A DNA stretch of 60,298 nucleotides from positions 1 to 60,298 of the IMG/VR virus record IMGVR_UViG_3300047387_000084; one strand, 5' to 3'. The DNA comes from a virus. Its lineage: Duplodnaviria; Caudoviricetes. Below, piece after piece: positions 1 to 53,990 of this stretch (positions within the stretch are counted from its first letter, which is position 1; the number at the start of each line of letters is the position of its first letter). A program made the translations under genes and the position numbers. The notes beneath the pieces are model-generated. The model was not told where the DNA came from. It ran no database searches and was given only the letters and a program-made list of their open reading frames with translations.

Positions 1-2143
1 GGCCGTTGAGTTGTTTTCCTCCATTTGTGTCAGAGCCGATGTGCAGCTTGCTTGCCGTAAGAAAGTTGCCGGTGTGTGGGAATGGAGCAGTTTGATTGCT
101 CATGGTGGCGGCAGAACCGTCCTGAGAACCCTCCATGGTGTTAGAGTTATAGCTCAAGGCTGTTCTCAAAAGAGTCCCCGCAGCTAAACGACCGTAGTTT
201 AACACGTTAACTCCATCATAACTAAGGAGCGGAGACGAAGAGCCTAGATTTTTGTAGGCAAACCGCTGATTATCGGCTGACCCATAGATAAGTGAGTTAG
301 CACCATCAGCATCGTTGAAAATAAACTCAGCGTAAAACGTTCCTTCTGAGCTTGAAAAGAAGTCGGTGAAGGCCGTCCGCGATGCCGGTGCGCCTGATGT
401 CGGGATGAATCCAGTCGGTGAGCTACCGAGTTCAACTTGAGGCATCGCGATTTCAATTGAGTCGCCAGAGGTAACTATATCGACGCCGAAGTTAACATTT
501 CCACCACCTGATTTACCTGTGAATGTCGCGGTAAACTTTTGGAATTCACTCGTAAGGGAAATTGATTGCTTTGCTGTGGGTGAACTTAAATAGATGATGT
601 TACAACCACCGCTTCCCGAGACGCGCCTTGCCCAGATTGATGCTGTATAAGTCGCCCCGTTGCTTGTTGGAACAGGAATGTAATAAGCCGCATTTGCTCC
701 AGTAGAGGTAATTACGCGAGACGCATTTAATGAATAACCACTTCCGGCAGATGAGTTAATCAGATACTCCTGCCACCCTCCAGAAAAGTCAGAATGAGTT
801 ACGAGGTTTGTCGAATCAGGGTCAATGCTAAGGTTGTCAGCGGCTCGCGTTCTTGCAGCGGCGTCACCGCCTGCTGTCGGTATGTAGGACGTGGCGACAC
901 TTCCGGCTTCGACTTGAGGTAGTGCAAAAAGAACTGAGCGTGTGCCTAACTCAATGTCAGGGTATAATTTAAAATAATCGACTGAAGAAAAAGATGCTGA
1001 TATTCGCCACCATCCGTCTCCGTGTTCTTTAATATCATAACCTGCCGGAGAACCGTCTAAAGAATGATAACTGGCACCAGCTTGAGTAAGATTAAAAGTT
1101 ACCGCTCCAAAACCATCGCTGTTTATGCTAACTCTTGAATCGGTCGAATCTCTCTTTACATATACACTTATTGTTGTGACTGAAGAGGAGCCTATGTAGT
1201 CTTGAATCCGCCCATAGGTTTCGCTTGCTGTAACCCTAAGAGCATTTTGCGATTGGAAAGGAGATGTAATATCTGTTTCTTGTTTTGTGGAACTTTGTAA
1301 ACCCCAGCCAGAAGAAAAATCAGTGTTCGTTACCAAGTTAGTTGCCGACGGCTCCACCAGAATCATCGGCACTCGTGGGCCGAAGGTTGCCCCTGTGATA
1401 AACTTCGGGCTGCCCGTTGTGTTCGCCACGAAGTCGTATTCAATCTCACCGTCAACAACTTGAGGCGTTGAGTATTCAAGGACGTTATCAATGGTGTGTG
1501 TTCCTAATTCAACTAACCCTATACTAACATTACCTCCTCCGACTTTACCGGAAAAAGTAACAACTATTTTTTGAAAATTTGAATCTAAATTTATTACGGA
1601 ATGATTATTAATAGGTGAATTTTGAGACCAAGCTCTAAACCCATTGCCTCCACCATTAGAAACTGAACGAACAAAAAAACTATAAGTATAATTTTTCCCC
1701 TCTTCTGTATTTATACTGTGTTTGAGCTGTGCAGTATTGCCTGTAGTAGTCCAGCGCAAAATAGGCTGACCATTCAGGGTTTCACTTTGAACACTGCTAT
1801 TTGAGAGGTAGTGGCTCCAATTACTAGAAAAGTCCGTATTCCCAACGTTTTGAAAGACCGTCGGAGTCAACTCGGCTCCCTGAGTGTGGTCAACGCGCAC
1901 CGTGTTCGCACTAGCTGACTGTATGACTCCATTGGCATCGGTGAACGTTGCAACGCCGCTGCGGTTCGCTGTGATAACGTCGAGCGACGATGGGACCGAT
2001 GGATCTAAGTCCAGTGTAAACGCCTCAAGCGTGCCTTTCATCGACGTTTCTGAGTCGAATAAGAGATACGGGTCCAAGGATAAGGGGTTGAAGGGGATTA
2101 CCCCACCCTTAGTAATACCTAAGCCGAGACCGAGACGTGACAT
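1..2143 (-). CDS. Fibre/spike protein with repeated carbohydrate-binding-like beta-sandwich units; runs off the window start (3' partial)
   Basis: Absent from the ORF track because it has no stop in the window. ATG at 2143 (MSRLGLGLGITKGG...), frame open wherever I checked. Repeated units of the type TNLVTxxDFSxGW...PQVExGSxxTxxIPT. Confidence 0.75.
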   Translation of the reverse strand, partial: MSRLGLGLGITKGGVIPFNPLSLDPYLLFDSETSMKGTLEAFTLDLDPSVPSSLDVITANRSGVATFTDANGVIQSASANTVRVDHTQGAELTPTVFQNVGNTDFSSNWSHYLSNSSVQSETLNGQPILRWTTTGNTAQLKHSINTEEGKNYTYSFFVRSVSNGGGNGFRAWSQNSPINNHSVINLDSNFQKIVVTFSGKVGGGNVSIGLVELGTHTIDNVLEYSTPQVVDGEIEYDFVANTTGSPKFITGATFGPRVPMILVEPSATNLVTNTDFSSGWGLQSSTKQETDITSPFQSQNALRVTASETYGRIQDYIGSSSVTTISVYVKRDSTDSRVSINSDGFGAVTFNLTQAGASYHSLDGSPAGYDIKEHGDGWWRISASFSSVDYFKLYPDIELGTRSVLFALPQVEAGSVATSYIPTAGGDAAARTRAADNLSIDPDSTNLVTHSDFSGGWQEYLINSSAGSGYSLNASRVITSTGANAAYYIPVPTSNGATYTASIWARRVSGSGGCNIIYLSSPTAKQSISLTSEFQKFTATFTGKSGGGNVNFGVDIVTSGDSIEIAMPQVELGSSPTGFIPTSGAPASRTAFTDFFSSSEGTFYAEFIFNDADGANSLIYGSADNQRFAYKNLGSSSPLLSYDGVNVLNYGRLAAGTLLRTALSYNSNTMEGSQDGSAATMSNQTAPFPHTGNFLTASKLHIGSDTNGGKQLNG

Positions 2144-2458: not shown

Positions 2459-4783
2459 TTAAATTATATTGAGAATAGCAGACCCTGATCCTGATGGGTC
2501 TAAAGAAAGTCGGGGCTTGGCGGCTCCTCTGGCGGCGTCTAGCTCCTCGTCCAGAAGCTTTTGACAGATCGTCCAGTGGTATTGAGCGCGTTCTAAATCA
2601 GCGTTGTCCTCTGCTAGCATGCCTAAAAGGCCGTGTTTAATAGCGTTTAGGTTACCTAGATAGATTAGGTCGTCTTGAACAAGGACAGGCTCCCACGCCC
2701 TCTTGAGTAAAAGCTTAATGTTCTTAACCTCAGCGGACGGATTACTAAACCGGAATCGACGGTAGCGAGCTACGCCGTCTCCTTTGACTACGGCTAGTGT
2801 TGTGGTTGAGGAAGTGTCTCCTGCGTATCGCCGAGACCCATTGACCCCCCCAACCGATGACGGCTCTCTTGGAGGGACGCTCATCTTCATGACATAGTTC
2901 GCCTTTTGAGGGGCCATGTAGATGGAATTACCATGAACCGCACCGTAAGAATACCAAGAGTCAGTGGCGGTATTAGTTTTAGCACCTGATCCAGTAAGTT
3001 CAGCCGATATTTCTTTATACCCTATCTCATCCGTTGCCGGATCTATCCAAAATATGTAAGGAATCTCAAAAGGGACTGAGTAGACAATACCGTCTGGGCC
3101 TAATACAGACGAAAACGATTTATTAAAGTAAACATCTACCTCACTAGAAGTCCCGCTGAAATAAGTATTTTCACGAATCCGTAGAGCCGCCGGAAGAGGG
3201 ATCTCAGTTGCAGTATCATTAGACGTATCAATTTTAAGGATTGCGTTTGCGTGTCTAGGGAAACAGTAGATACAGCCATTTGACGGCACGAATGTGCCTC
3301 CAGAGTATTTATTCCAATACGGGTGATGAATAGTAATATTAGAATCAATTTTGCCTGTGTAATACGGCTCATTTCCGGTGATAAGGTCACTACCGACTGT
3401 TACCGAATCATTAGTAGGATTAACAATTACAATTTTATCAGCCCCGTAGGGGGTCAAATAAATTTTACCGTTTGCTGCTTTCGTAGCCCCGATATAACTA
3501 TCGTAAACCCACCTAAAATTATTCTGTGAGGTTGAAATATCATCAATCTCACTAACCCAATTAGGGCGGACATCATAAATACCTCCTGTTCTATTACCGC
3601 TAGAATCAGTTGGGAAGTTAATCGGTAATTCTGTTCTCCCCCAAGGAGAAACGTGATTCGTAGTAGAGGTCGCATCAATGTCAAATTTTACAACATACGG
3701 TGTTGAAACTTGATCATTAGTAACGGTAGCCCCTCTACTATATACTGAGGAATAAATATTGCCGTTGGTTTCAGCTCCCCCTCTCAAATGTTCGGGATTG
3801 TATCCTAAGTAGGAATCAGTAGCTACTGAAGGATTACCCACTGGAGGTGCGCTAATGTAAGGATCTCCAACGGTTCCCGCAGCAGAGGGGTTAATCTTCA
3901 AATAACTATTATAACCAGAAGCGTTCGCATAAATAAACCCGTCGCTAGCGTTTAAAGTATCGACAAGTTTGCTTCCGATTAAAGGGGGGTTAGCACTTGT
4001 TCCGGCGACTGCGCCCCCATTACTTGTCGTATCCGTTACGGGATCTATAACTAGTAAGAAGTCCTCGTGGTAGGGAGGGCAAAAAAGCTTATCACCACCA
4101 TTGGCAATACCACGCCATTTACCATCCCGATTTCCGTTTAAATCACTGCCGATCAACTTAAAAGTTAGGTGTGAACCAGAGACTGTTGAAGCCACAGCGG
4201 AGACCTTAACTTCTTCGGAAACGTCAGCAAAACTAACAGACTTGATACTGACGACTTTATTGACAAGAGTAGACAAAGAGGCCGTCCCATTTAGGTCAAA
4301 CGTGTGGCTCTCAACATCGTCCTCACCGACCGCAAAATCAGTTTCTTCTCCATAAACGACTGTGACCGAACCAGTAGTAGGTAAAGTCGTTTTTGGCGCG
4401 ATTGGCTCGACTACGATATAATAGACATCTGTGTCTGTTTTATGAACTAAATCCTCTTTAGCCTCGTGGAAACCATCGTCCACAACACCGAAAATAGGCG
4501 CTGGTCCTGATTTCGCGTAGCCAGAAATACGGTAATCATGCCACTGAGAACGAGCTTGAACCGGAGAATCTTGTAACATCGCGCCTAAAAGGCTCTCAGA
4601 ATGCTCAGGCAACGCGAAATAATCGTTCGTAGTGTCGATAGAATGGTCGTAGAGTAGATCTTTCCACATCCCCATCCCATACAGGCGGGGCATGACTAGA
4701 TTCAGCTTGGCTACAAGATCTTCGTCAGGCCGGACGTATTCAGACAAGGCTTTAGTTACGGCCTTTACGGTCAAAGCTGGCAT
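2459..4783 (-). CDS. Head-tail adaptor/tail-tubular-like protein with an inserted beta-propeller domain
   Basis: Helical N- and C-terminal parts resemble podoviral adaptors; the middle has repeats like GxxxxxNGKIYxxPxxAxxIxxIxP. Confidence 0.55.
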   Translation of the reverse strand: MPALTVKAVTKALSEYVRPDEDLVAKLNLVMPRLYGMGMWKDLLYDHSIDTTNDYFALPEHSESLLGAMLQDSPVQARSQWHDYRISGYAKSGPAPIFGVVDDGFHEAKEDLVHKTDTDVYYIVVEPIAPKTTLPTTGSVTVVYGEETDFAVGEDDVESHTFDLNGTASLSTLVNKVVSIKSVSFADVSEEVKVSAVASTVSGSHLTFKLIGSDLNGNRDGKWRGIANGGDKLFCPPYHEDFLLVIDPVTDTTSNGGAVAGTSANPPLIGSKLVDTLNASDGFIYANASGYNSYLKINPSAAGTVGDPYISAPPVGNPSVATDSYLGYNPEHLRGGAETNGNIYSSVYSRGATVTNDQVSTPYVVKFDIDATSTTNHVSPWGRTELPINFPTDSSGNRTGGIYDVRPNWVSEIDDISTSQNNFRWVYDSYIGATKAANGKIYLTPYGADKIVIVNPTNDSVTVGSDLITGNEPYYTGKIDSNITIHHPYWNKYSGGTFVPSNGCIYCFPRHANAILKIDTSNDTATEIPLPAALRIRENTYFSGTSSEVDVYFNKSFSSVLGPDGIVYSVPFEIPYIFWIDPATDEIGYKEISAELTGSGAKTNTATDSWYSYGAVHGNSIYMAPQKANYVMKMSVPPREPSSVGGVNGSRRYAGDTSSTTTLAVVKGDGVARYRRFRFSNPSAEVKNIKLLLKRAWEPVLVQDDLIYLGNLNAIKHGLLGMLAEDNADLERAQYHWTICQKLLDEELDAARGAAKPRLSLDPSGSGSAILNII

Positions 4784-5055: not shown

Positions 5056-5721
5056 TCACCAGTTATGAGTCCAGTAAGTAACTGCGTAACTTTTAGGGTA
5101 TGCTTCTTTCAAAAGATCTACACATTCCCAGTCAATGCTTCTAGCTACTCGATCACATTCAGGATCCCCCCACGCTCTAGGATAAATTAAATCGTGGGAT
5201 AACAGAGTATGATTAGGTTTATGGACATCAACAGCCCAATTTAAGCGGTCAGGTCCAGCTACTTGTTCTGTTGATCTACTAACTTTTTTTGCTAAATCGT
5301 TAAAAGCATCGAAAGCCATAGCTAACCAAAAGGTATCCCCTTTAGGGGAATACATCCAAGCATTTGGTAGTGGTTGTCCGGAATTATTGTGCTTACCTAA
5401 AACTATATGGTCCCCTAATGGGGTTAGTAGAGCATCCATATCCTTCAAGCAAATGAAGTCCATATCCGCATAAATACCCCCATGCTTGTGTAGGTATAGT
5501 AATCGGCATAAGTCCGATTTTATTACGCCCTTCTTAACTTTTTGGAAAATATCCCAAAACATAGGGTAATCATCTCGAACTAATCGTTCGTTATCCTCAT
5601 CAGTCCAAAACTTATATTCCCAATCAGGACTCATGTTTTTCCAAGAGTCTTGCCACGATTCCCTATAAATGTTACGGGGGATGTCGTAATCTTTCCAAGT
5701 CTGATGTATGATTTTTTCCAT
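5056..5721 (-). CDS. GT32/OCH1-like DXD glycosyltransferase
   Basis: KIIHQTW, WEYKFWTD, SDLCRLLYL..HGGIYADMD and GP motifs. Confidence 0.9.
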   Translation of the reverse strand: MEKIIHQTWKDYDIPRNIYRESWQDSWKNMSPDWEYKFWTDEDNERLVRDDYPMFWDIFQKVKKGVIKSDLCRLLYLHKHGGIYADMDFICLKDMDALLTPLGDHIVLGKHNNSGQPLPNAWMYSPKGDTFWLAMAFDAFNDLAKKVSRSTEQVAGPDRLNWAVDVHKPNHTLLSHDLIYPRAWGDPECDRVARSIDWECVDLLKEAYPKSYAVTYWTHNW

Positions 5722-6393
5722 CTACCAAAATTTTGTTTCAAGTGTTTTACCACTGATATTCGACGCACCAGCTCGCTGGCCTACGACCCACTCTTTTGGG
5801 CAGTAAACTGGCCAATCCTTGCGTCGGTGGGCTAATTCAAGCTGGTGGTCAATGTGCTTGTTCGTGTTACGGTAGTCCGTCGCATATGATATATGGCGGT
5901 AAAACGACGTGAAAGTAGACTGATTAACGGCGTAGGCGTGCGTCCTGTTAATAGAGTTCCCGACAATTACATTAGGAGAGTCAGTAGGTGTGGGGTCTCG
6001 GCGGTGTTGACCACCTAAATAGATCTGCCCCCAATCCTCCGGCACGTCTTCCATGAACTCATTGAGCTTCTCTAAAGAGTCTTCCTTAAATATCACGTCG
6101 TCTTCTAATACCAATACGTTGTTCAAAGACATATTGTAGCGGTCATCTCTAGTATGGATGACATCCTCCAGAATCCTTTGATGCGAACGTAAACAACCCC
6201 ACGCGCCTCTGCCAGAACCCCAGTCAGCCGGACAGGTTGTCCAGTCTCCGATTATAGCAGGATAATAGTAAACCCAGTCATTATTAGCCATTCCGGTTTC
6301 TTCCAGATGCTTCTTCGTCTCTTCGAGACGATCCGGTCTATGGGCGCAGTTGATCACGTAAACGCGGTCAAACCAGTCAGTTAGATTCTTCAT
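5722..6393 (-). CDS. GT25-family glycosyltransferase
   Basis: VYVINC..RPDR, GAWGCLRSH, LVLEDD, IYLG, THAYAVN and IDH motifs. Confidence 0.9.
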   Translation of the reverse strand: MKNLTDWFDRVYVINCAHRPDRLEETKKHLEETGMANNDWVYYYPAIIGDWTTCPADWGSGRGAWGCLRSHQRILEDVIHTRDDRYNMSLNNVLVLEDDVIFKEDSLEKLNEFMEDVPEDWGQIYLGGQHRRDPTPTDSPNVIVGNSINRTHAYAVNQSTFTSFYRHISYATDYRNTNKHIDHQLELAHRRKDWPVYCPKEWVVGQRAGASNISGKTLETKFW

Positions 6394-6908
6394 GGGTTTC
6401 CGTCTCCTTCAGATACTGAGGATGAACTTTTTGATGATCCTGAAGAGCTAGAGCTAGAGGCTGAAGAGCTAGAGGCTGAAGAGCTAGAGGCTGAAGAGCT
6501 AGAGGCTGAAGAGCTAGAGGCTGAAGAGCTAGAGGCTGAAGAGCTGGAACTAGAGGCTGAAGAGCTAGAACTAGAGGCTGAAGAGCTAGAACTATCAGGA
6601 CTACAAGGGGAATCATGAACGGTAACCTCTATGGTTACAGTAGATGAAGAAGACGAAGAAGAAGACGAAGACGAATTACTGCTTGTATAGGTTCCCGAAG
6701 CATCATTTTCACTGGAACCTCCCTCCCATTGCTGGAAAAACACATCGAGTATTATCCATTCCGAACTACCGTTCCAATAAAGGGTATAAGACGCAGCAGC
6801 AGTATAGTATTGAACGCTGTCGTCCCAATACAAGTCGATGGGGTCTCCGCTCACCCCATCGTCAGTGACGACGAGCCGCGCCCTACACTTTCCGTTCGGT
6901 GCCGCCAT
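6390..6908 (-). CDS. Poly-serine protein (172 aa)
   Basis: In register with neighbours (4 nt overlap with the GT25 start); small beta domain plus two Ser tracts. Confidence 0.7.
   Translation of the reverse strand: MAAPNGKCRARLVVTDDGVSGDPIDLYWDDSVQYYTAAASYTLYWNGSSEWIILDVFFQQWEGGSSENDASGTYTSSNSSSSSSSSSSSTVTIEVTVHDSPCSPDSSSSSASSSSSSASSSSSSASSSSASSSSASSSSASSSSASSSSASSSSSSGSSKSSSSVSEGDGNP
6443..6594 (-). repeat. Tandem 15/21-bp repeats encoding SSSSA units
   Basis: (gaagagctagaggct)n on the + strand. Confidence 0.9.
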
Positions 6909-8087
6909 TTATTCTCTCGGGTAAGCTGAGTTAATAAAGTTCTCGTTAGCTATGAACTGCTCTTTACTACGCTCAGGCATATCAAACCCTCTAAAGCCTT
7001 TACGGGTTCCGGTCAGTTTCAAAGTTACCTTAGAAGGCCGTAAAAAAGATAAAGGCCACGCCGAAAGAATCACGTTGTTCTTCTCAACCACCGCACCAAC
7101 TGATCCAGCCTTGTCGCCGGATATTCCTGTAACAGTCATCGAGTCCGGTTCACACACTACCAAGAACCTGTCATCGATTCGGGCTACTGTATTGGCTCCT
7201 TCTAACGGCACATCCCTCATCACGAACTCAAAGAGAACCTCATTGGATTCCATCGTGAACAACGCACCGTATCCTTTGTCATGCCAGTCCATAGGCACAA
7301 TAGCGGTAGATTTGTCAGAACCGGATGAAGAGGAAGAAGAGGAAGAAGAGGAAGAGGAAGAAGAGGAAGAGGAAGAGGAAGAAGAGGAAGAGGAAGAAGA
7401 GGAAGAAGATGAAGAAGAATCTTCCTGAACACCAAAAGCTGTTAACCAGTAAACGTCAGTGGATATGTTTTGGTCTAGGTTTTCTATCTCATAACCAACG
7501 TCTTCCGAAGCTCCTACCCCTTTAGGGGCTACATAACCAATCTTAACGTAGAACTTACCGCCGTTGTCATTAGGTAAATTTTGTTGTGGGGGAGGATCGC
7601 CATTCCCATCATCCCCTCTAATATCACATAAAGTAACAGCACCTGAACTGTTAGTCTCCCAATAAAGATAAACATTACCCCGCCAGTTCAGTCTATAGAA
7701 CTTGTATCGGTTTTCTAATGGACTGTTTGCTGGCGGCTCTAAATTAGACGGAGTGACTACTTGTGGGTTGCCTATACCAGTCTGCGATACCAACCCGTCC
7801 GTATTAAACACCATCCGGTTAATCTGATGCACTAGAACACCGTAATAAATGTGTATCCCTTCCTGACCACTAACAGCAGGAGCAGGCCGCAAGGCAAACG
7901 GATACGGCTTGTAAGCTGGATCTTCAGGACTAACACTCCCAGTCGTTGTGTCGTAGTTGTCATCAAAATCACCCGTAAAGTCACGCGGACCTTCAGGCGC
8001 ACCCTCTAACGGTATCGGTAGAGGAATATCAGAACTGTCTTCGGGCTTCATGATGGAGGATAAACAGTTACTGTCTCCATGAGCCAC
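6909..8087 (-). CDS. Structural protein with a >30-residue poly-Ser linker and a C-terminal chaperone-like domain
   Basis: Poly-Ser at about 7325-7422; the C-terminal domain shares DSMTV and GxRK with the fibre at 10542-13319; true start may be 8051. Confidence 0.65.
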   Translation of the reverse strand: MAHGDSNCLSSIMKPEDSSDIPLPIPLEGAPEGPRDFTGDFDDNYDTTTGSVSPEDPAYKPYPFALRPAPAVSGQEGIHIYYGVLVHQINRMVFNTDGLVSQTGIGNPQVVTPSNLEPPANSPLENRYKFYRLNWRGNVYLYWETNSSGAVTLCDIRGDDGNGDPPPQQNLPNDNGGKFYVKIGYVAPKGVGASEDVGYEIENLDQNISTDVYWLTAFGVQEDSSSSSSSSSSSSSSSSSSSSSSSSSSSSSSSSGSDKSTAIVPMDWHDKGYGALFTMESNEVLFEFVMRDVPLEGANTVARIDDRFLVVCEPDSMTVTGISGDKAGSVGAVVEKNNVILSAWPLSFLRPSKVTLKLTGTRKGFRGFDMPERSKEQFIANENFINSAYPRE

Positions 8088-10324
8088 CCACCCCTAAACG
8101 GTTTTACTTCTGAAGATATGATGTGTGGCTCCCATGTCGTTACGTTGGTTGCGTTCTTGTTATAGACTGCACCTGTGTTATTCCAAGTCTCGTCGCTATT
8201 AATACTTACAGTGAAGTATAATGATGGGTGGAGGGTCGGAGGTATATCTAAAGTGAATAACGGGTTCTTAATCGAGATCACTTCTGGTATTGGTTTCTCA
8301 CCTGCCTCTAAACCAACTGGTTGAGTCGTAGACCAGCTAATATCAACTACTGCTTTACATGGACCTCTGAAGGCGCCTTTTGAATAGAGAACTCTAGGAT
8401 AAGTTCTCGCGCCACCAGACCTCAAGTTCCATACATCAAACTGAACGTCTTGTAAAATGGGTGGGAAAGCATAGTTAACTACTGTCTCGTAACGAAGGCG
8501 AGCGCATGCATTAGGCGCGTAAGTCGATGTCTCATCATCAGGGCGGTAATTAATAAAGTTGTAAGTTAGATCTATAGGGTCAAGTTGATACCCTTTTACA
8601 AAATAGTCTGGTATACTGTCGCTGGAATCTGTGGGGCGCGTGCTTTGAGCTGCATATTCAACATCCAGATCCGAAATCATTCGGTTTATGTCATTATAAT
8701 TTCTAGGTGCGCTTACGAATCCTCCTTCTCCTCCTCCTCCTACACTAACGAGACCTATTAAGACACACTCTCCATTAATTACAGCCACTATCGGATTACC
8801 CGAATCGTTATTTACTAAAGCTTCATACCACGACGAATAGGTGCTACTAGGTGACCCCCCAAAAAACTTACCATAATTAGCAGAGTGATCCGCATCAGAT
8901 GGTGTGTCATATGCGTCAGGAGTTGGGTCAACGAAGTGTTTAAATTGAAGAAACGTGAGTTTTCTTACAAGGGCTTTTTCTTCTTGGTCCGTCCCAAACA
9001 CTAAAAACTCATTACTGCTACCAGCGTCCCATGTAGTGTTTGTAGTTGAAGGGAAATAACTAGAATCAAAATACTGATACGCATTGATCGGTAAAACTTT
9101 TACTGGTTCGATAGACGCAGGTAGCTCTTGGTCTAATAACGCAATTCCAAAGTCTCCGTCATCATGAGAGGCTTGACCTGTTTGAGCGTTGGGATGAACT
9201 TTTACAGCTATAATAGTGCGCTCAATTAAAACATCATGCTTGGTAACAAAATAAACTTTATTGCCTACAACATACGGGGCGTGTTCAGTGTATAGAACAT
9301 GTCGTTTAGTAACGGCTACACCCCCCATCATTTTCTCTTGACCCGTTCTACTATTCCACGCAACAAAACCTGTCAGACCTTTTAAACCATGCGCCCAACA
9401 ATTTGTATTCCTTTGAAGGTTAGATTGAACAGTGTAGGGGTCAAAAATATTTTGAGCGGTTGAGGGACTCTTTCCAGATAATCTATTACTGACCTCTGCG
9501 CTCATGTGAGTCTGGAGACTCACCCTAGAATCATTACCAGAAGTAGGACACTTAACAACCTCCTGCTCAGTAACGGCAAACCAGTTGTCTGATAACTGCT
9601 GAACAGTGCGGATCGTGCCGGAATTCATGCCCCAGTAGGGTGTATTGTTAGCTGGTGGGCCAACGTAGGCATTATCTGGATTATCTTCTAATTGCGCGAT
9701 TGTTGGGTTTTGTGTCGTATTCCCACCTATTACCACAGTAGCTTCAGATACGACCTCGCCTCCATAATAAAGTATCTGTTTAGTCTCGTTCGTCGTCTTG
9801 AAGAACTCATCAAAGTCTAGACGAGACAATGGAACCTTCTTCACGTAAACCCGTTGCTCGACGACATACAGGCCGTTTAGAATCTTGTCGTTTAGAGGAA
9901 TCTGCTTACGCTCCGCCAGAACGTGTGTGCCACTGAACTTGCCTGTTGGAGTATCTGGCATAGTCGCTCCCATTGCGGGAACGGTAGAGCTAAACTCGCT
10001 ACGACGGATTACGTAATCACGTGAAACAGCGTCGAACTTAGTGCCGCCAATATCAGCCTCACTGTAAGACCAGTTGTCGTTGTCCTGCTCTAGCTGGTCA
10101 GCCGCGTAGTAGTAACGGTAGTAACGAGTCTGGTCGTCTGCTGCTTCAATATGAACCAGTCGGTGGTTTGGCCACTTTTTGTAGTCGGGGTGGTTAGACC
10201 CGTATTTAGGAACATCAGGCCCAACCCTCTCCGCATCAACGGTTTCAAAAAAGAGGATGTCGTTAACATTCGGGGTAGGGAATGTAACGACTGACTGTCT
10301 CTGTGGGGATGGGTTAAGGGCCAT
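8048..10324 (-). CDS. Tail protein with an inserted trypsin-like serine protease domain
   Basis: VTKRHVLYTEH, DFGIALLD and NDSGNP give His-Asp-Ser in trypsin order. Confidence 0.65.
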   Translation of the reverse strand: MALNPSPQRQSVVTFPTPNVNDILFFETVDAERVGPDVPKYGSNHPDYKKWPNHRLVHIEAADDQTRYYRYYYAADQLEQDNDNWSYSEADIGGTKFDAVSRDYVIRRSEFSSTVPAMGATMPDTPTGKFSGTHVLAERKQIPLNDKILNGLYVVEQRVYVKKVPLSRLDFDEFFKTTNETKQILYYGGEVVSEATVVIGGNTTQNPTIAQLEDNPDNAYVGPPANNTPYWGMNSGTIRTVQQLSDNWFAVTEQEVVKCPTSGNDSRVSLQTHMSAEVSNRLSGKSPSTAQNIFDPYTVQSNLQRNTNCWAHGLKGLTGFVAWNSRTGQEKMMGGVAVTKRHVLYTEHAPYVVGNKVYFVTKHDVLIERTIIAVKVHPNAQTGQASHDDGDFGIALLDQELPASIEPVKVLPINAYQYFDSSYFPSTTNTTWDAGSSNEFLVFGTDQEEKALVRKLTFLQFKHFVDPTPDAYDTPSDADHSANYGKFFGGSPSSTYSSWYEALVNNDSGNPIVAVINGECVLIGLVSVGGGGEGGFVSAPRNYNDINRMISDLDVEYAAQSTRPTDSSDSIPDYFVKGYQLDPIDLTYNFINYRPDDETSTYAPNACARLRYETVVNYAFPPILQDVQFDVWNLRSGGARTYPRVLYSKGAFRGPCKAVVDISWSTTQPVGLEAGEKPIPEVISIKNPLFTLDIPPTLHPSLYFTVSINSDETWNNTGAVYNKNATNVTTWEPHIISSEVKPFRGGWLMETVTVYPPS

Positions 10325-10541: not shown

Positions 10542-13319
10542 TTATTCTTCGTCGGTTGCAAGGGTTTCTTCGTCTTCTTCAACTGCTTCAGACTCTTCTA
10601 AGCCCTCGACTTCTCCTGTGTCGTCAATTTCTATTTCTAGTTTATCTATGTCTTTTCGTTCTCCATACACCACATAGAAATAATTAAGGAGTGTTTCTGT
10701 ATCTGACCCTACAGTCACTTCCCCGTTATCCGCGATATCTTCAACATAAAGATTTTGGTTGGGGCCGATAGCTGTGAGTTCTACCGTCATGGAATCGAGG
10801 CGGACTAAACCACTCCAATAATCTGGCATCTGAATCGTGTTTGATTGACTTCTTCCTCTAAAGTAAACTGCAATTTCCGGCCCCTCAATGCAAGAATGTA
10901 TTAATCTCTTACCTTCTTTAGTTGGGTGTTTTATTGAGAAGTTTTTAGTAGTTCCTACAATAACACCATCAACTGTAAGATTAGAACTATAAGCGTTGAT
11001 ATTACCTCTAGAAATCCTAAACACTTCAGTTGCTTGGCCAGCGGTAGCACTACCGTAACCAAATGTAACTATCTTCTGACTACCGCCTGAGTTAGGCGAT
11101 TGAACATATAAGACATAGTTACTTGCTGCGGTGTCGCGTGTTATTAAGCTATAACTAGTGCTGCTGGAGTCAGTCCGAAATGCGTTTGCTTCGACGATCC
11201 CATTAACATCAACAGCACTACTACTAACTGTCCCTGTAAACGTAGGGCTGGCAAACATAGTCGCCTTACTTTCGTTTGTTACGTTACCTAAGCCAACGTG
11301 TGTCTTACTTACGCCACTAACCGTACCTGTAAAGGTAGGGCTAGCAAACATCGTAGCCTTACTTTCGTTTGTTACGTTACCTAAGCTAACGTCAGTGGCT
11401 GTTACGCTTGTTAAGTAGTTCTGACCTTTAACATACTCCGTAGTAGCTACTTTAGTTGTGTTATCACTTAACGTAGGCGTAGGGGCTGTAGGTGCGCCTG
11501 TAAAGGTAGGGCTAGCTAAGTTCGCTTTGAGATTTAAAAACTGGTTTGTTTCAGTCTCTGTGTAATAGCGGCTATCTAAATCTGTGCTAGAGGCTGTTAA
11601 GTAAGTCCCTAAGTCACTAATCTGGGACTCCGTAATAGAAAGCTCTCCTTGGTGTTGCGTGACACTAGCCTCAGATATGTTATCCGCGTGTATGTCCGTG
11701 GAACCTTGGTCCGTCGTCCAGTCAACTATCTGAGCAGCGGCAGGAGTGCCACTTATAGACGAGTAAGGGATCGTAGGTAAGTTATTTACATGTATGTCTG
11801 TAGATCCTTGGTCCGTCGTCCAGTCTATTATCTGGTTGCCACTAGGTATCGTAGGTTTTCCACTTAAAGACGAGTAAGCTATCGTTTGCCCTTTAACATA
11901 CTCCGTAGTAGCTAATTTAGTTGAGTTTTCACTTAACGTAGGTGTAGGTGCTGTAGGCGTACCTGTAAACGTAGGGCTGGCAAACATCGTAGCCTTACTT
12001 TCATTAGTTACGTTACCTAAGCCAACGTGTGTCTTACTTACACCACTAACTGTACCTGTAAAGGTAGGGCTAGCGAACATCGTAGCCTTACTTTCGTTTG
12101 TTACGTTACCCAACCCAACGTCAGTAGCTGTTACGCTTGTTAAGTAGTTCTGGCCTTTAACATACTCCGTAGTAGCTAATTTAGTTGAGTTTTCACTTAA
12201 CGTAGGTGTAGGTGCTGTAGGTGTACCTGTAAAGGTAGGGCTAGCGAACATCGTAGCCTTACTTTCGTTTGTTACGTTACCCAACCCAACGTGTGTCTTA
12301 CTTACACCACTAACTGTACCTGTAAAGGTAGGGCTAGCAAACATCGTAGCCTTACTTTCGTTTGTAACGTTACCTAACCCAACGTCAGTAGCTGTTACGC
12401 TTGATATATAGTTAGGGTCGGACGAAGGAACCCAAGAAGGGGTCACATCTGCGTTGGTAGCTCCGGTATATCCTAAGTCGGCTAACGTCAGTGTCCTTTT
12501 AGTTGCGCTAGCTGAAGTTACATGACCTAGCGCGTCACTCGTAAAAGCAATAGCATCTACAACGTCAGCTCCTGTCGCGTCTACTGAAATAGTCCTAACT
12601 GTTTGAGTCGGGTGTATGAATTTGTTAGCGTCCGCATCTCCAGTATAACCAATGTCAGCTAACAATATCGGCCTAGTAGTGATCCCCGTCACACGACCCG
12701 ACGTATCGGATGTGAATGTATCTAAGACGTGCGCCCCACTAGTATTAATATTCCTCGCTGTAAACGATGTCGGTAGGACGTATTTGTTGGCGTCCGCAGC
12801 TCCGGTATACCCTAAGTCAGCTAAAGTAAGCGTCCTAGTCGTGATATTAGTTACATGGCCCGCAACATCAGAGGTAAATTCATCTAATACAGACGCTCCA
12901 CTAGTATTAATACTACGGGACGTGTAGGTAGGGTGGACGTATTTGTTGGCCTGAACCGCTATCCCGTCCAGCTTAGTGCCGTCTACGGAAAGATCTCGCC
13001 CATCTACCGTCCCGCTAACCGTTATAGCGGCGAAGGTAGGGGAGTCCGTCGTATTTAAATTCTGATCAAACGGATTAGCCGACGAGGATGACCCCGTAGA
13101 CTGGTCAATCGTTAGCAGTATATTGTTGTCCTGAACCGTTATTGACGGGTCTGTCGAGCCGGTAACGGTAAGCAATGAAGTAGGCGTGTCACTAACCGTT
13201 AAAGTTAAATCATCGCTAGCAATGGTTAACGGGGCGCTAGTGCCACTGACAGTCAGACTGTGTGTGGGGGTTTCACTAACGGTTAATCCATACTCATTCT
13301 CATTTACTGTTAAAGACAT
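10542..13319 (-). CDS. Long tail fibre with shaft repeats and a C-terminal intramolecular-chaperone-like domain
   Basis: Six V(G/S)LGNVTNESKATMFASPTFTG repeats, three PTAPTP..ATTEYVK repeats, C-terminal KNFSIKHP..LIHSCIEGPE..YGERKD. Confidence 0.85.
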   Translation of the reverse strand: MSLTVNENEYGLTVSETPTHSLTVSGTSAPLTIASDDLTLTVSDTPTSLLTVTGSTDPSITVQDNNILLTIDQSTGSSSSANPFDQNLNTTDSPTFAAITVSGTVDGRDLSVDGTKLDGIAVQANKYVHPTYTSRSINTSGASVLDEFTSDVAGHVTNITTRTLTLADLGYTGAADANKYVLPTSFTARNINTSGAHVLDTFTSDTSGRVTGITTRPILLADIGYTGDADANKFIHPTQTVRTISVDATGADVVDAIAFTSDALGHVTSASATKRTLTLADLGYTGATNADVTPSWVPSSDPNYISSVTATDVGLGNVTNESKATMFASPTFTGTVSGVSKTHVGLGNVTNESKATMFASPTFTGTPTAPTPTLSENSTKLATTEYVKGQNYLTSVTATDVGLGNVTNESKATMFASPTFTGTVSGVSKTHVGLGNVTNESKATMFASPTFTGTPTAPTPTLSENSTKLATTEYVKGQTIAYSSLSGKPTIPSGNQIIDWTTDQGSTDIHVNNLPTIPYSSISGTPAAAQIVDWTTDQGSTDIHADNISEASVTQHQGELSITESQISDLGTYLTASSTDLDSRYYTETETNQFLNLKANLASPTFTGAPTAPTPTLSDNTTKVATTEYVKGQNYLTSVTATDVSLGNVTNESKATMFASPTFTGTVSGVSKTHVGLGNVTNESKATMFASPTFTGTVSSSAVDVNGIVEANAFRTDSSSTSYSLITRDTAASNYVLYVQSPNSGGSQKIVTFGYGSATAGQATEVFRISRGNINAYSSNLTVDGVIVGTTKNFSIKHPTKEGKRLIHSCIEGPEIAVYFRGRSQSNTIQMPDYWSGLVRLDSMTVELTAIGPNQNLYVEDIADNGEVTVGSDTETLLNYFYVVYGERKDIDKLEIEIDDTGEVEGLEESEAVEEDEETLATDEE

Positions 13320-13666
13320 TAGAAGTCGGTGATGTTATTCTCTATCTGTAAATCCCCGTAAATTAGGCGGGTTGTGTTCCCACTGCTTTCTATACGGAAC
13401 AAATCCCACTTATAGCGGGCGTTTCCATCTAACTTCAGTGTCTCTGCTTTAGGTAGCTTTACTGAAACAGTGGCGGGGTTTGTAGCGTTTGTAATACTTA
13501 CTGTGAACGTCGCGACGAGGGGCTTCCCCGCATCACGACGGACTTCTGCTTTAAAAGTGTCGCCCGTTAAATTTACAGCAGCACTTCCAGTGCTTGCTGC
13601 TATCGTTAATGTGAACGAAAAATCTTCGCCGCGACCTACTGTAATGTTATGTTTTGCTGCTGCCAT
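13319..13666 (-). CDS. Fibre attachment/BppU-like small beta protein
   Basis: NITVGRGEDFSF...YKWDL...RLIYG pattern, directly upstream of the fibre. Confidence 0.6.
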   Translation of the reverse strand: MAAAKHNITVGRGEDFSFTLTIAASTGSAAVNLTGDTFKAEVRRDAGKPLVATFTVSITNATNPATVSVKLPKAETLKLDGNARYKWDLFRIESSGNTTRLIYGDLQIENNITDF

Positions 13667-19081: not shown

Positions 19082-19110
19082 AGTATATTGAATTGACAGG
19101 CAATGTCAAT
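19082..19110 (-). promoter_or_regulatory. Portal promoter with an inverted repeat over the -35 box
   Basis: TTGACA-16 nt-TATACT, ATG 8 nt later; ATTGACA-n5-TGTCAAT palindrome. Confidence 0.7.
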
Positions 19111-19546
19111 CATTGGGGTAAGCCTCCTCCATGATCTTCTCCATGCGAACCCAGTGGGCGCGACCGTCTTGTGTGCGGAGGCGAGCATACTCCTTTTCTC
19201 CGAAGTCCTTAGTGTTCACTAAAAAAGGATGGCCCCTATACCGCTTACCAGTATTCCGGTATTTCCAAACCGCACCGTAAGGCGTTACCTTGTAATCGGG
19301 GTAACCTGCGACTACGACAAACTCCTCATCTGGTAGTCCATACCGAACTACAGAGGGGTTGTTGTGGTTTACCCTCCTATACACACCACCATCGTCAGTA
19401 ACAAAAGAGTGGTATTTTAGGTTTTGCCAATACCGCTTTATCTTTTTGTCGGTTTTGAGGTTGAATATGTAATTATCATCGGTCAAAGCGTAATGTGATG
19501 CGCCTTCGATGGGCTTCCAGTTTTTCGGTATCTTGTAATCGATCAT
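19106..19546 (-). CDS. Tandem NUMOD4-like protein without an HNH active site
   Basis: WKPIEGASHYALTDDNYIFN and FVVVAGYPDYKVTPYGAVW units. Confidence 0.6.
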   Translation of the reverse strand: MIDYKIPKNWKPIEGASHYALTDDNYIFNLKTDKKIKRYWQNLKYHSFVTDDGGVYRRVNHNNPSVVRYGLPDEEFVVVAGYPDYKVTPYGAVWKYRNTGKRYRGHPFLVNTKDFGEKEYARLRTQDGRAHWVRMEKIMEEAYPND

Positions 19547-25536: not shown

Positions 25537-25728
25537 ATGACTGATATAAATGACCTGATCATCGCTTTGCGAAGCCAATCAAATACCTACGAAAAGTTGC
25601 TGGAGAAGAAAATAAAAATGGAGCAAGAATTGGGGCGGCTCCAAGATGAGACCATCGACTGCCGCCGCGCTCTCACTGTCCTGCAACAGACCCTCGAATC
25701 CCGATTCTCTGACTTAGATGAAAAATGA
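25537..25728 (+). CDS. Small coiled-coil protein
   Basis: Heptad pattern, A-rich start context. Confidence 0.6.
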   Translation: MTDINDLIIALRSQSNTYEKLLEKKIKMEQELGRLQDETIDCRRALTVLQQTLESRFSDLDEK

Positions 25729-43120: not shown

Positions 43121-43351
43121 ATGTTCCAAGACCGTGAGCCAGAGGTAGGGCCGAAGTTTATTACCCGAATTGATGAGGGGGCGGACTTCCGTTTTCCGAT
43201 AGATACCGCCGATGGCCTTTGGTATCGTGTGAAGCCTTCAACGGCTCGCGAAGTATTTTACTTGCAATCGTTGCCGAAAGGGATCAGGATTCTTGTACCT
43301 GCTGAAGGCGATGGCCTACTAGTCAGAGGAGACTCAATACCTGTAAAATGA
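43121..43351 (+). CDS. Hypothetical protein
   Basis: ATG at 43121; ATGA coupling to the next gene. Confidence 0.6.
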   Translation: MFQDREPEVGPKFITRIDEGADFRFPIDTADGLWYRVKPSTAREVFYLQSLPKGIRILVPAEGDGLLVRGDSIPVK

Positions 43352-52772: not shown

Positions 52773-53990
52773 TTAAACATCAAACTCAAGTTTGATCGCT
52801 CTAGATGTCCCAGCTAATCCTAAATAAACGCTATTGCCTTTAACTAAGGCTGCTGTCGAGTAACCTGTTCCGAGGCTCATTATGCCGGAACCTTCTTTGG
52901 CTGTAGCTTTACCATCCTTAAATTCATTCTCGTAATCTTTCCATTGGAACTCAAGCGTGTTGGGGTTAATCCGAAAACATTTCGTATCTGCCCAGAATGC
53001 GCTATATAGCCAACCATCAGGCCCAAGATAGCCGTTGAAGTTTTTGTTTTTATTAGCAACCGACAGGTAGTCTTCTGGTAATTTAAATTCTTGATATGAG
53101 TCGTCTTCGCAGTTGATTACTAAAAACATTTTACCTTGTCGCGGTAGGCAGAAAATTTTGTTCACCGCCTCAACATAGGTAGCTCCTACATATTTGACCG
53201 AGAAGCCGTATACACCAGACGTAACTGGTAGGCCGTCTAGATATTTAAACCTTCCGTTTTTGTCGATCTTTGCGACACTCGTTCCGAGTGCGGGCGGCAT
53301 GTAAATCTCTCCCTTCTTGTCAGTAGCTGCTCCCCAGATGTGGTTAAAATTCGCGGGCCTGTTCGGCTTAGGTGGTGTGAAAGAAGATACTTCTTGTGTG
53401 TTCGTATTGTATGTGAAGATCTTGAGTGTCCTCGTATACGATGGCATATAAATTATTCCGTTGTTTCCTTCGGCTCCCGACCGCACTTGCGGACTCATCT
53501 TGAATTTCTTTTCTACAGAAATAGATCCTGTCTTCCTATTTAATCTAGCTATCGAACTGGCGTAGGCGGGCAGAAAATAAGTGTAGCCGTCTGACGCTTC
53601 TACATTCCCAATGAACCCCTTGTATCCCGTATCCTGTTTCTCGATTCGGTCAGCCGCAGTATCGGTTTTAATATGCACGTCTGACTTATAACCTAGTGAA
53701 TGGATTGTGCCGTCATCGCTAAGACCCATCGTGCGGGTCTTTGTCAGGTTCCCTTTAAACTCGCCATCTAGATACTTGAAGCGGGGCCAAGGTGTAAAAC
53801 TAAAACTAGAGCTAGAGCTAGAGCTAGAGCTAGAGCTGGAGCTGGAGCTAGAGCTGGAGCTAGAGCTGGAGCTAGAGCTGGAGCTAGAGCTAGAGCTGGA
53901 GCTAGAGCTAGAGCTAGAATCTTCTTCCTTAAGATTTTTTAAAATCTCTTGAAGAAGTTTAATTATTTTTTCTAGTGCTTGGTAGATCAA
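52773..53990 (-). CDS. Poly-Ser-linked beta-propeller protein
   Basis: Short amphipathic helix, >35 Ser, then repeats such as GAATDKKGEIYMPP. Confidence 0.7.
   Translation of the reverse strand: MIYQALEKIIKLLQEILKNLKEEDSSSSSSSSSSSSSSSSSSSSSSSSSSSSSSSSSSSSSSFSFTPWPRFKYLDGEFKGNLTKTRTMGLSDDGTIHSLGYKSDVHIKTDTAADRIEKQDTGYKGFIGNVEASDGYTYFLPAYASSIARLNRKTGSISVEKKFKMSPQVRSGAEGNNGIIYMPSYTRTLKIFTYNTNTQEVSSFTPPKPNRPANFNHIWGAATDKKGEIYMPPALGTSVAKIDKNGRFKYLDGLPVTSGVYGFSVKYVGATYVEAVNKIFCLPRQGKMFLVINCEDDSYQEFKLPEDYLSVANKNKNFNGYLGPDGWLYSAFWADTKCFRINPNTLEFQWKDYENEFKDGKATAKEGSGIMSLGTGYSTAALVKGNSVYLGLAGTSRAIKLEFDV

Follow-up and report, generated by a model that had tools for sequence, protein, structure and literature searches.

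Virions of mycobacteriophages are reportedly O-glycosylated in the cytoplasm, with capsid or tail-tube subunits as the targets. In the serine-rich repeat proteins (SRRPs) of Gram-positive bacteria, priming is carried out by the GtfA/GtfB pair. Polyserine linkers occur in carbohydrate-active enzymes of Saccharophagus and Teredinibacter which are secreted and are not known to have an adjacent glycosyltransferase.

These systems, together with collagen-type glycosylation, can be set beside the locus described here. The mycobacteriophage glycosyltransferases are likewise phage encoded; as summarized in PMC13313380, their proposed or demonstrated substrates are structural proteins of the phage itself. 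According to PMC6973325 and PMC7948813, SRRPs carry serine-rich repeats that are O-glycosylated intracellularly by dedicated glycosyltransferases encoded alongside the substrate; the repeats include the SASASE type, as in one relative of our locus (L009), and extension enzymes differ between strains. The polyserine linkers of Saccharophagus degradans and Teredinibacter turnerae, which are homopolymeric or nearly so, likewise join independently folding domains and mark shuffling points (PMC2386152, PMC2699552). Collagen-type enzymes (human COLGALT1/GLT25D1; mimivirus R655 and R699) have the GT25-type GT-A fold that is predicted for the enzyme studied here. According to PMC9546862, mimivirus encodes repetitive structural proteins plus enzymes that glycosylate them, the collagen-type acceptor is hydroxylysine in collagen repeats, and the activity of R655 itself is stated not to have been assayed.

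We analyzed a DNA stretch of 60,298 nucleotides (the window), a lytic-looking uncultured marine phage of ~60 kb. No match was obtained when the region (blastn) or the fibre-like protein pS392 (tblastn) was compared with 50,697 phage records, and the DNA polymerase is at most 28% identical to that of any cultured phage. A region in its tail operon is best explained, from gene content and comparison with related loci (numbered L001 onward), as the core of a tail-fibre decoration module. Virion O-glycosylation of serine-rich segments would be the best reading of this module, with a probability of roughly one in two.

Organization of the locus within the tail operon

Four abutting ORFs on the minus strand, encoding the 392-aa and 172-aa proteins pS392 and pS172 and two putative glycosyltransferases (GT25-like and GT32-like), lie within the tail operon (Table 1). 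The 172-aa ORF starts one base past the stop of the 392-aa ORF, the GT25-like gene overlaps the 172-aa ORF by 4 nt (ATGA), and the GT32-like gene directly abuts the GT25-like gene (gap 0). The preliminary description of this DNA had poly-Ser ORFs abutting or overlapping GT25 and GT32 genes, and the coordinates, gap and 4-nt overlap agree. It had also placed them in a tail operon, which is backed by the PHROG tail-fibre matches at the operon head, by a match of 13319-13666 to an L-shaped tail-fibre assembly family (with an LtfC match just under the cut-off), and by a match of 2-2143 to tail-protein phrog_5939 (E 6e-27).

Table 1. Coordinates of features in the window.
Feature	Position (nt)	Strand	Remarks
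prop774	2459..4783	-	320-aa conserved tail protein (1-195 + 654-774) with an inserted propeller-like domain
GT32-like glycosyltransferase	5056..5721	-	221 aa; putative variable second enzyme
GT25-like GT-A glycosyltransferase	5722..6393	-	223 aa; putative constant enzyme of the module
pS172	6390..6908	-	172 aa; accessory protein
Tag GSSKSSSSVSE	6408..6440	-	Window's copy of [YFW]GS[ASE]KSx[SG]S[VI]SE
pS392	6909..8087	-	392 aa; fibre-like protein
GSDKST junction	7305..7322	-	aa 256-261; opens the conserved C-terminal tip domain
32-Ser run of pS392	7323..7418	-	aa 224-255, unbroken; TCT/TCC repeat; interdomain linker
p758	8048..10324	-	Conserved structural protein upstream, family unknown
Tail fibre protein, operon head	10542..13319	-	925 aa; PHROG tail-fibre families, E down to 7e-21
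pS405	52773..53990	-	405 aa; short N-terminal segment, 38-Ser run, propeller-like repeat domain

Candidate glycosyltransferases

The GT25-like protein matches PF01755 (Glyco_transf_25; E 2.4e-7, 31.3 bits against a cut-off of 24) in an alignment that spans residues 63-120 only; five scanned distant homologues or fusions pass the same family. It carries EDD at aa 97-99, and E97, D98 and D99 are invariant in an alignment of 16 sequences (A2). By Foldseek, the solved structures closest to its AF2 model (pLDDT 85.5, pTM 0.86) belong to protein-directed or viral enzymes, human COLGALT1 (E 1e-10, TMq 0.62-0.65) and R655 of mimivirus (E 1.7e-10), a point in favor of the virion-glycosylation reading; these neighbors mirror which GT25 members have structures. 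Matches to structures 9evj and 9crz (COLGALT1/R655 type; profile E 7e-5) are at only ~19-21% identity. The protein is therefore predicted to have a GT-A fold of the GT25 type with an acidic metal/nucleotide-sugar motif. The subfamily comprises 454 representative clusters at E <= 1e-30.

The PHROG families matched by this protein are labelled 'glucosyltransferase, moron/auxiliary', and there is a weak match to DUF1599 ('nucleotide modification associated') at 43348-43761 (24.6 bits, cut-off 25). Both would suit enzymes that glycosylate the phage DNA in the style of the T4 glucosyltransferases. We regard this as highly improbable, as the genes lie in the tail operon rather than a replication module, the predicted fold is GT-A of the GT25 type, and such a role would not account for the link with serine-rich structural proteins. 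Pfam and PHROG scans found no integrase, hydroxymethylase or sugar-nucleotide genes in the window, which weakens both the DNA-modification and the seroconversion readings.

The GT32-like protein matches PF04488 (Gly_transf_sug, GT32-type DXD region) over residues 24-99 (E 1.1e-16, 61.7 bits, cut-off 23), with DMD at aa 86-88. Only one of 12 relatives (L001) has a homologue, at 73% identity. Across relatives, the slot after GT25 holds GT32, GT8, a second GT25, a GT2-methyltransferase fusion or a UDP-galactopyranose mutase (E 4e-50). Fusions occur as well, namely GT25-sulfotransferase (L134) and GT25-GT32 (L083), the C-terminal half of the latter being 34% identical to our GT32-like protein. Variation this extreme in the position of the second enzyme suggests that phage surfaces diversify in a serotype-like manner. 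The GT25-like gene, as judged from gene order across the relatives, is the constant, translationally coupled partner; an initiating transferase, which had at first seemed to be lacking, is not missing in principle.

Serine tracts at domain junctions

Serine-dense stretches (at least 9 Ser per 20 residues) are confined to pS392, pS172 and pS405 among the window's 66 non-overlapping ORFs, a clustering far beyond chance. Serine makes up 73 of the 172 residues of pS172 (42%), with runs of 11, 6, 6 and 6, and pS405 has its 38-Ser run at aa 25-62 (nt 53805-53918). The codon repeats differ by tract, being TCT/TCC in pS392, a 15-nt AGC-TCT-TCA-GCC-TCT unit in pS172 and a TCT-AGC hexamer in pS405. Because these repeats are different and mixed, serine appears to be kept at the protein level rather than to stem from a single slipped triplet.

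Both flanks of the pS392-type junction could be located in 104 of 120 close homologues; in these the junction is a short acidic stretch of Ser, Asp, Glu and Gly, 14-45 residues long with a median of 18. Set against these homologues, the long pure poly-Ser run is an extreme form of a linker. The preliminary description had taken the tracts for a mucin-like brush; they are not brushes alone, positioned as they are as interdomain linkers in 104 homologues.

Alternatively, the tracts could be plain linkers or recombination joints, with the glycosyltransferases directed at, for example, host envelope glycans (LPS, capsule, S-layer). Their purpose would then be a superinfection block or progeny release, and the tail operon would merely be a late, highly expressed cassette. 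In line with this, the tracts lie exactly at domain borders where domains are swapped, linker length and S/D/E/G/T content drift freely between homologues, and distant members have Gly/Ser-type linkers. Some GT25-like genes have no serine-rich neighbors, PF01755 is an LPS-type family named for LPS enzymes, and GT25-like homologues occur in Verrucomicrobiota genome records. We nevertheless hold this explanation to be rather unlikely in view of the comparative data presented below, and no membrane, lysogeny or integrase genes lie beside the enzymes.

The swapped domain is a propeller in several cases: it lies within prop774 in the window and within the serine-rich protein preceding GT25 in L007, L009, L010 and L020. 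The repeat domain of pS405 is related to the prop774 insert and is 25% identical by tblastn to propeller-type ORFs (E 1e-14 to 1e-18). Serine-rich homologues of pS405, which itself has no tag, were confined to relatives that carry GT25 or to one truncated upstream (L168, L172, L177, L179). That pS405 is a third poly-Ser protein is confirmed by its 38-Ser run, but its remoteness from the enzymes (~46 kb), which counts against the glycosylation reading, holds in window coordinates only: in L001 and L003 the third poly-Ser gene shares a late operon with the glycosyltransferase cassette and follows it at a distance of ~3.5-4 kb.

Conserved peptides in the fibre and accessory proteins

The predicted architecture of pS392 is an N-terminal beta domain (~aa 60-221), the 32-Ser linker and a C-terminal beta-sandwich tip (aa 256-392). 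Its AF2 model has a mean pLDDT of 62, with domain cores at 70-90. A Foldseek search returned nothing at E <= 0.001, the N-terminal domain and GSDKST region being barely covered where the model is weak, and a profile search against sequences of solved structures gave chance-level matches only (E >= 0.01). By VIA-align, the tip domain matched 7eea (Z 7.3, 71 residues, 2.3 A), discoidin I (Z 6.0) and R-pyocin fibres (Z 5.4-5.6), values below 8 that may reflect just a common arrangement. With these middling Z scores, the modelled domain may resemble the C-terminal tips of tailspikes and fibres, and lectins. Homologues of pS392 are present in 13 viral loci, and the tip domain is found in at least 282 proteins, every one annotated as hypothetical. 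GSDKST is invariant in 17/17 aligned fibre proteins (alignment A3, invariant block GSDKST..IVP..W), with tip-domain identity to the window copy falling to 39%. By analogy with endosialidase-type tail fibres, GSDKST might conceivably be an autoproteolytic chaperone site; this reading was set aside, and the Pfam scan gave no match to Peptidase_S74.

The accessory protein pS172 begins with a small domain (aa 1-102), continues with serine-rich repeats and carries a conserved tag at its C-terminal end. L001, L003 and L005 have the N-terminal domain at 93-97% identity; elsewhere among the relatives its place is taken by a propeller, Ig-like domains or nothing (as in the 84-aa counterpart in L006), the Ser tract and tag being retained. 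Among ORFs lying up to three positions upstream of a GT25-like gene, 25 contain the tag pattern, against 0/557 for the other ORFs of the same loci. It was found N-terminal, C-terminal or internal in very different proteins, high-GC contigs included. We ruled out that the tag is a by-product of the GT25 ribosome-binding site, since it is also internal, N-terminal and present in a high-GC contig. The SEGDGNP codons do contain GGAG. By these alignments, GSDKST and the 12-residue tag are two invariant peptide marks that travel with the module; they are new here and provide precise experimental handles.

The two marks share a GSxKS[ST] element, and it is conceivable that this element is the acceptor, through the Ser/Thr beside Lys or the Lys itself, and that the Ser runs are mere spacers. 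The invariance of GSDKST in a diverging tip domain and the retention of the tag at varied positions in very different proteins would fit, and COLGALT1 and R655 belong to lysine-linked collagen glycosylation (PMC9546862). This is improbable in our view, because scans of the window turned up neither a lysyl hydroxylase nor a 2OG oxygenase, the tag persists where unrelated enzymes replace GT25, and a tag protein is lacking in L059 and L060, where GT25 and the tip domain are present. The lysine hydroxylation route was rejected, as no hydroxylase was found among the window genes. The tag accompanies the tip domain even where other enzymes replace GT25, so that its role may lie in assembly and not in acting as a sequon. 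A complex prediction for GT25 with pS172 aa 128-172 scored 0.00, without controls, and has no bearing either way.

It is also imaginable, if doubtful, that the enzyme glycosylates both tag and leash and that the lectin-like tip domain captures the glycosylated tag. Any tag-bearing domain (propeller, Ig-like or small beta) could then be hung on the tail by a sugar-coated Ser leash, and the conserved trio of tip domain, tag and neighboring sugar enzyme would work as a plug-and-socket system from which modular receptor-binding tips are assembled. If true, this would be glycan-mediated virion assembly, a principle undescribed for phages, and the system appears widespread in marine phages that possibly infect Verrucomicrobiota.

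Comparative linkage of enzymes and serine-rich proteins

Returning to O-glycosylation of the serine-rich segments, GT25 is present in 12/12 close relatives extending past pS392 (identity 82-94%), always behind a serine-rich ORF whose N-terminal domain differs (small, propeller, Ig-like or none). Across 64 viral contigs (GT25-like identity 29-94%), 52/158 ORFs in the three same-strand positions upstream of GT25-like genes were serine rich (at least 11 Ser per 20 residues) versus 3/557 other ORFs, counts that are not phylogenetically independent and much of which is synteny within related cassettes. The linkage persists on deep branches, where GT25 identity is 33-40%. On the GT25 tree the Ser-linked state occupies several deep branches, and 5 changes suffice to explain the 60 labelled rows; shuffling the labels 500 times gave a mean of 16.3 changes and never a count as low as 5. 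A serine-rich neighbor is lacking in 19/60 classifiable GT25-like loci, so the enzyme family can dispense with such tracts. These genes still lie in virion modules, beside a tail fibre, head-tail adaptor or major head protein.

For the reciprocal test, 31 loci with at least 1.9 kb downstream were found via the fibre tip domain. A GT25-like gene was present in 25 by profile search and in 2 more by tblastn. The remaining four had a sulfotransferase, GT2/GT7C, GT32/Caps_synth or methyltransferase above the Pfam cut-off, along with weaker matches to Stealth, pyruvyl-transferase and O-FucT. Within the window's clade, GT25, tip domain and Ser tracts are all present in 17/20 loci and all lacking in 2/20. 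The last (L189) keeps the Ser proteins and has a 676-aa methyltransferase-domain protein in the GT25 slot, with no recognised glycosyltransferase. In the sister clade, not one of the three features is found in any locus (0/33).

Were the tracts plain linkers and the enzymes aimed at host glycans, the 52/158 versus 3/557 enrichment and the whole-module loss in the sister clade would go unexplained, and there would be no account of other sugar enzymes replacing GT25 behind the same fibre and tag proteins. The comparisons support treating both glycosyltransferases, together with the serine-rich structural proteins, as a single unit that is gained or lost whole in this phage family, although joint gain and loss may reflect physical linkage because the genes adjoin. 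The co-occurrence check proposed in the preliminary description, by enrichment and by whole-unit presence or absence, supports a functional unit; the expected association stands as one unit in the family but not for the GT25-like loci without a Ser neighbor.

Proposed mechanism and significance

Recurrence of the four-gene unit across many phages unrelated to one another makes it probable that this phage coats its own tail fibres with sugar. In the scheme that we favor, pS392 would consist of a lectin-like distal beta-sandwich hung from the N-terminal domain via a flexible serine-rich linker, and pS172 would be an exchangeable accessory protein that combines a variable domain with a serine-rich leash and the conserved tag. 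Two soluble GT-A enzymes, made together with them from one transcript, would attach O-linked sugars to the serine-rich segments while these are still in the cytoplasm, either ahead of tail assembly or in its course. Of the two, the constant GT25-like enzyme may add the first or core sugar and the variable second enzyme (GT32 in the window) may extend it; since the second enzyme varies, we propose that relatives carry different glycans. The outermost tail linkers would thereby become stiffened, protease resistant and hydrated. The gene anatomy, the enzyme families with their conserved DXD-type motifs and the genomic linkage, which is tight, deep and reciprocal, are observed. The role of the serines as acceptors, the identity of the priming enzyme and the purpose of the glycan (shielding, adhesion or host-surface mimicry in the preliminary description) are points that we infer.

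Should the serine-rich tail parts carry glycans, self-glycosylation would reach beyond actinobacteriophages and be common among abundant marine phages that have not been cultured. A coat of this kind would influence how the phage adsorbs, how stable its particles are, how well they resist proteases and how grazers or host defences recognize them. The host is possibly a member of the Verrucomicrobiota, and the family distribution provides a clue to which phylum hosts this group of phages, which has no close cultured relative.

Comparison with known systems

A literature search by title and abstract (virion glycosylation, polyserine linkers, Ser-rich fibre glycosyltransferase) returned no description of this module. 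Compared with collagen-type systems, the window has neither a collagen repeat nor a hydroxylase. With the SRRPs the locus shares a serine-rich repeat protein encoded beside glycosyltransferases. However, SRRPs are exported via the accessory Sec system (PMC6973325, PMC7948813). In the phage, a GT25-like GT-A enzyme is the candidate for priming, and what is produced is a virus particle. Neither the GtfA/GtfB pair nor the SecA2/SecY2 export families appeared in Pfam/PHROG scans of the window ORFs. The SRRP system is thus an analogue of this locus and not a fellow member. The mycobacteriophage system differs in its hosts, which are Actinobacteria there and probably Gram-negative marine bacteria here, and in its enzymes, which here belong to a different family (GT25-like plus a variable partner). 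The putative targets here are tail-fibre linkers and a tagged accessory protein. Finally, unlike those of the polyserine carbohydrate-active enzymes, the linkers here travel with sugar enzymes and a conserved tag.

Genomic context of the tail cassette

The window covers all or most of a phage genome. It encodes terminase, a family A DNA polymerase, helicase, exonuclease, an Amidase_3 endolysin, a tail fibre, and tail proteins, and no cultured phage has a polymerase more than 28% identical to the one encoded here. Because ORFs on the same strand overrun both ends, and related contigs measure 55.8 to 61.4 kb, the 60.3-kb window may be a complete, circularly permuted genome. The genes for the serine-rich, fibre-like protein pS392, the accessory protein pS172, and the GT25-like and GT32-like enzymes abut or overlap in the late operon at exactly the coordinates reported in the preliminary description.

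Positions of the late operon genes and of other ORFs discussed in the text
Feature	Coordinates	Strand	Remarks
Tail fibre	10542-13319	-	First in late operon order
67-aa ORF		-	Late operon, between tail fibre and p758
p758	8048-10324	-	Late operon, structural protein
pS392	6909-8087	-	Late operon, after p758
pS172	6390-6908	-	Late operon, after pS392
GT25-like gene	5722-6393	-	Late operon, after pS172
GT32-like gene	5056-5721	-	Late operon, after GT25-like gene
65-aa ORF		-	Late operon, between GT32-like gene and prop774
prop774	2459-4783	-	Late operon
Tail protein	2-2143	-	Last in late operon order; overruns window end
Terminal ORF	57460-60297	-	Overruns window end
pS405	52773-53990	-	Third poly-Ser protein
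3671-aa ORF	27335-38350	-	Single ORF, no Pfam match
DUF1599-matching ORF	43348-43761	+	Weak match
HNH or endonuclease VII-type gene	19106-19546
HNH or endonuclease VII-type gene	25718-26122
HNH or endonuclease VII-type gene	54934-55149

Elsewhere in the genome, the size of the 3671-aa ORF is reminiscent of the virion-packaged giant proteins of some podoviruses. A possible hint of DNA modification in this phage, unconnected with the tail cassette, comes from the weak DUF1599 match ("nucleotide modification associated domain 1"; 24.6 bits against a cut-off of 25), whose neighbours are a RuvC-like resolvase and a helicase. The three dispersed HNH or endonuclease VII-type genes are possible homing endonucleases.

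Serine-rich proteins and their partner enzymes

The serine tracts claimed in the preliminary description are real: pS392 has an unbroken run of 32 serines, pS172 has serine at 73 of its 172 residues, and pS405 has an unbroken run of 38. Among the 66 nonoverlapping ORFs of the window, tracts of this kind were confined to these three proteins, and the DNA repeat under each is mixed-codon and different in all three genes.

In an AF2 model (mean pLDDT 62; domain cores, 70 to 90), pS392 has two beta-rich domains with the serine run between them. Across 17 homologues with 32 to 94% identity to it, the strongest alignment block, GSDKST-x-IVP-xx-W, lies immediately after the linker; the protein ends in NSAYP. 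Its C-terminal, or tip, domain aligned with the cyanophage Pam1 tailspike (Z 7.3, 71 residues, 2.3 A), discoidin I (Z 6.0), and R-pyocin fibres (Z ~5.5), scores that possibly reflect only a common arrangement. As modeled, the domain looks like a lectin or the distal beta-sandwich of a tailspike or fibre, and because the Z scores were middling and a Foldseek search with the pS392 model gave no significant match, we call it fibre-tip-like, outside any named family. pS172 consists of a small conserved N-terminal domain, serine repeats, and a terminal GSSKSSSSVSEGDGNP. The GT25-like protein has a confidently predicted GT-A fold (AF2 pLDDT 85.5), with human collagen galactosyltransferase COLGALT1 and mimivirus R655 as the nearest solved structures and an invariant E97-D98-D99; the GT32-like protein has a strong DXD-region match, with DMD at residues 86 to 88.

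Conservation of the cassette among relatives

With pS392 as query, 13 viral contigs were retrieved, and in all 12 that extend past this gene a GT25-like gene follows (82 to 94% identity, higher than the 61 to 86% for pS392 itself). The ORF immediately 5' of GT25 was serine-rich every time, mostly with a 4-nt overlap, and its folded part is not constant: it is a small domain in the window, a propeller-like domain in L007, L009, L010, and L020 (L numbers denote loci or contigs of relatives), and Ig-like domains in L032 and L034 (PF16403, E 7e-27), and it is missing from L006, where the ORF encodes an 84-aa Ser/Thr/Asp protein. By comparison with L001 (9920-10882), the 774-aa prop774 is a conserved 320-aa protein carrying a ~450-aa propeller-like insert at aa ~205-637. 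The presence of this same propeller in prop774 and in the relatives' pre-GT25 proteins shows that the serine tracts are points where modules are shuffled.

With this conserved 320-aa tail protein, encoded downstream of the cassette, as an anchor, we fetched 80 loci. The window's clade (anchor identity 55% or more) contributed 20 loci with 2.5 kb or more upstream, of which 17 had GT25, the tip-domain protein, and serine-rich ORFs together and two (L190 and L191) lacked all three. The remaining locus, L189, keeps the tip domain, serine tracts, and the protein bearing the conserved peptide tag described below, and its enzyme slot holds a 676-aa protein with a methyltransferase match only. In the sister clade (anchor 37 to 47% identical, same surrounding gene order), not one of GT25, tip domain, tag, and plus-strand serine-rich ORF was found in any of 33 loci with at least 2.5 kb upstream; a 79-aa opposite-strand ORF in two of them was counted as spurious. 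Serine-rich homologues of pS405 (L168, L172, L177, and L179) were confined to loci that bear GT25 and to one locus truncated upstream.

The association also holds over greater distances. A wider GT25 alignment led to 64 viral contigs of 6 to 211 kb with a GT25-like gene (29 to 94% identity), and the co-occurrence that the preliminary description had proposed to look for was found: serine-rich ORFs (11 or more Ser within a stretch of 20 residues) made up 52 of the 158 ORFs that occupy the three same-strand positions upstream of GT25 versus 3 of 557 others. On the maximum-likelihood GT25 tree, the serine-linked state spans several deep branches with 5 changes, compared with an average of 16.3 for shuffled labels (0/500 as low); in both the counts and the tree, the numbers are not phylogenetically independent. 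Reciprocally, the tip domain retrieved 41 loci, 31 of them with at least 1.9 kb downstream. Profile search found a GT25-like ORF in 25 of these, and two more are contigs with an earlier tblastn match. The other four (L127, L135, L139, and L140) carry different carbohydrate-type genes, with matches above the Pfam cut-off to sulfotransferase, GT7C/GT2, Caps_synth with GT32, and Methyltransf_24, and matches below it to Stealth, pyruvyl-transferase, and O-FucT.

The preliminary description had named two patterns as counting against glycosylation. Serine tracts kept without the enzymes were found in at most one locus; enzymes without tracts do exist in some lineages of the wider family. The latter comprise 19 of 60 classifiable GT25-like loci, falling in two nested clades (L068-L080; L071/L077), L085, L088, and a basal group. 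In three such loci the gene was still located in a virion module: in L070 it lies near a tail fibre, and in L095 it follows a head-tail adaptor, between the major head protein on its upstream side and the tape measure on its downstream side. A PHROG search of its neighbours in L071, L085, and L088 gave no match.

Conserved peptide marks

Besides GSDKST, the serine-rich partner protein is marked by the tag [YFW]GS[ASE]KSx[SG]S[VI]SE, which matched 25 ORFs near GT25 versus 0 of 557 others. Both marks are previously undescribed. The tag is C-terminal in the window's family, directly behind the start methionine in distant phages (MSYGSAKSSGSVSES...), and internal in further phages; it also occurs in one high-GC contig, and in L140 the fibre and tag proteins are fused in a single frame. 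In L127, L135, L139, and L140 it accompanies the tip domain although GT25 has been replaced, so a role in assembly or docking is no less likely than one as a recognition site for the enzyme.

Variation in the sugar enzymes

The slot after GT25 is hypervariable among close relatives. It holds GT32 in the window and L001 (with a faint GT32-like match in L011), a second GT25 in L002, GT8 in L005, L006, L007, L008, and L013 (three of the five slightly below the Pfam cut-off), and a 430-aa protein combining a Methyltransf_24 domain with a sub-cut-off GT2 match in L009 and L010; in L003 it is empty. GT25 is fused to GT32 in L083 and to a sulfotransferase in L134. An additional UDP-galactopyranose mutase (PF03275, E 4e-50) in the cassettes of L008 (13546-14538) and L012 (2908-3900) implies that galactofuranose is part of any glycan made there. 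Sulfotransferase domains, one of them that fused to GT25, lie behind the same fibre and tag proteins in L127, L134, L135, and L140; together with Stealth-like matches under the Pfam cut-off in this set, they suggest sulfated or phospho-linked sugars in some phages.

Linkers or acceptors

In the 104 of 120 close pS392 homologues with both flanks identifiable, the stretch from the N-terminal domain to GSDKST spans 14 to 45 residues (median, 18) and is 44% Ser, 13% Asp, 10% Glu, and 9% Gly. Judged against these, the 32-Ser run is the long, pure extreme of a flexible acidic linker. Such data fit a plain linker and, equally, a glycosylated linker of the cellulase type. It is possible that the tracts are plain linkers and that the enzymes act on another target, a reading with which GT25-like genes lacking a serine neighbour are also compatible; given the joint presence and loss of tracts and enzymes, we consider it less likely than virion self-glycosylation.

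Taken together, the comparative evidence bears out one part of the preliminary description, that the serine-rich tail proteins and sugar enzymes belong together, and they likely form a functional unit. Virion self-glycosylation, with the serines as putative acceptors, is to us the best explanation of these gene patterns, at a probability of roughly 0.5.

Host lead and relation to known systems

When prokaryotes were scanned at one genome per species, 21 of 26 GT25-like loci were labeled Verrucomicrobiota. The whole module (tip domain, tag, and GT25) was present on four short contigs from such genome records, three labeled Verrucomicrobiota (L142, with an 87% identical enzyme, L144, and L159) and one Acidobacteriales (L146); these could be prophages, or contigs of phages that ended up in MAG bins. 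The Verrucomicrobiota labels are a lead toward the host, short of an assignment. Luteolibacter and Haloferula genome records (L145, 6327-10643; L147, 6057-10643) have a GT25-like gene of ~355 to 365 aa just upstream of large ORFs (1439 and 1529 aa, each truncated where the locus ends) with long Ser/Gly-rich tracts.

The putative glycosylation system described here differs from known phage virion glycosylation in enzyme family, in acceptor architecture, and in probable host group.
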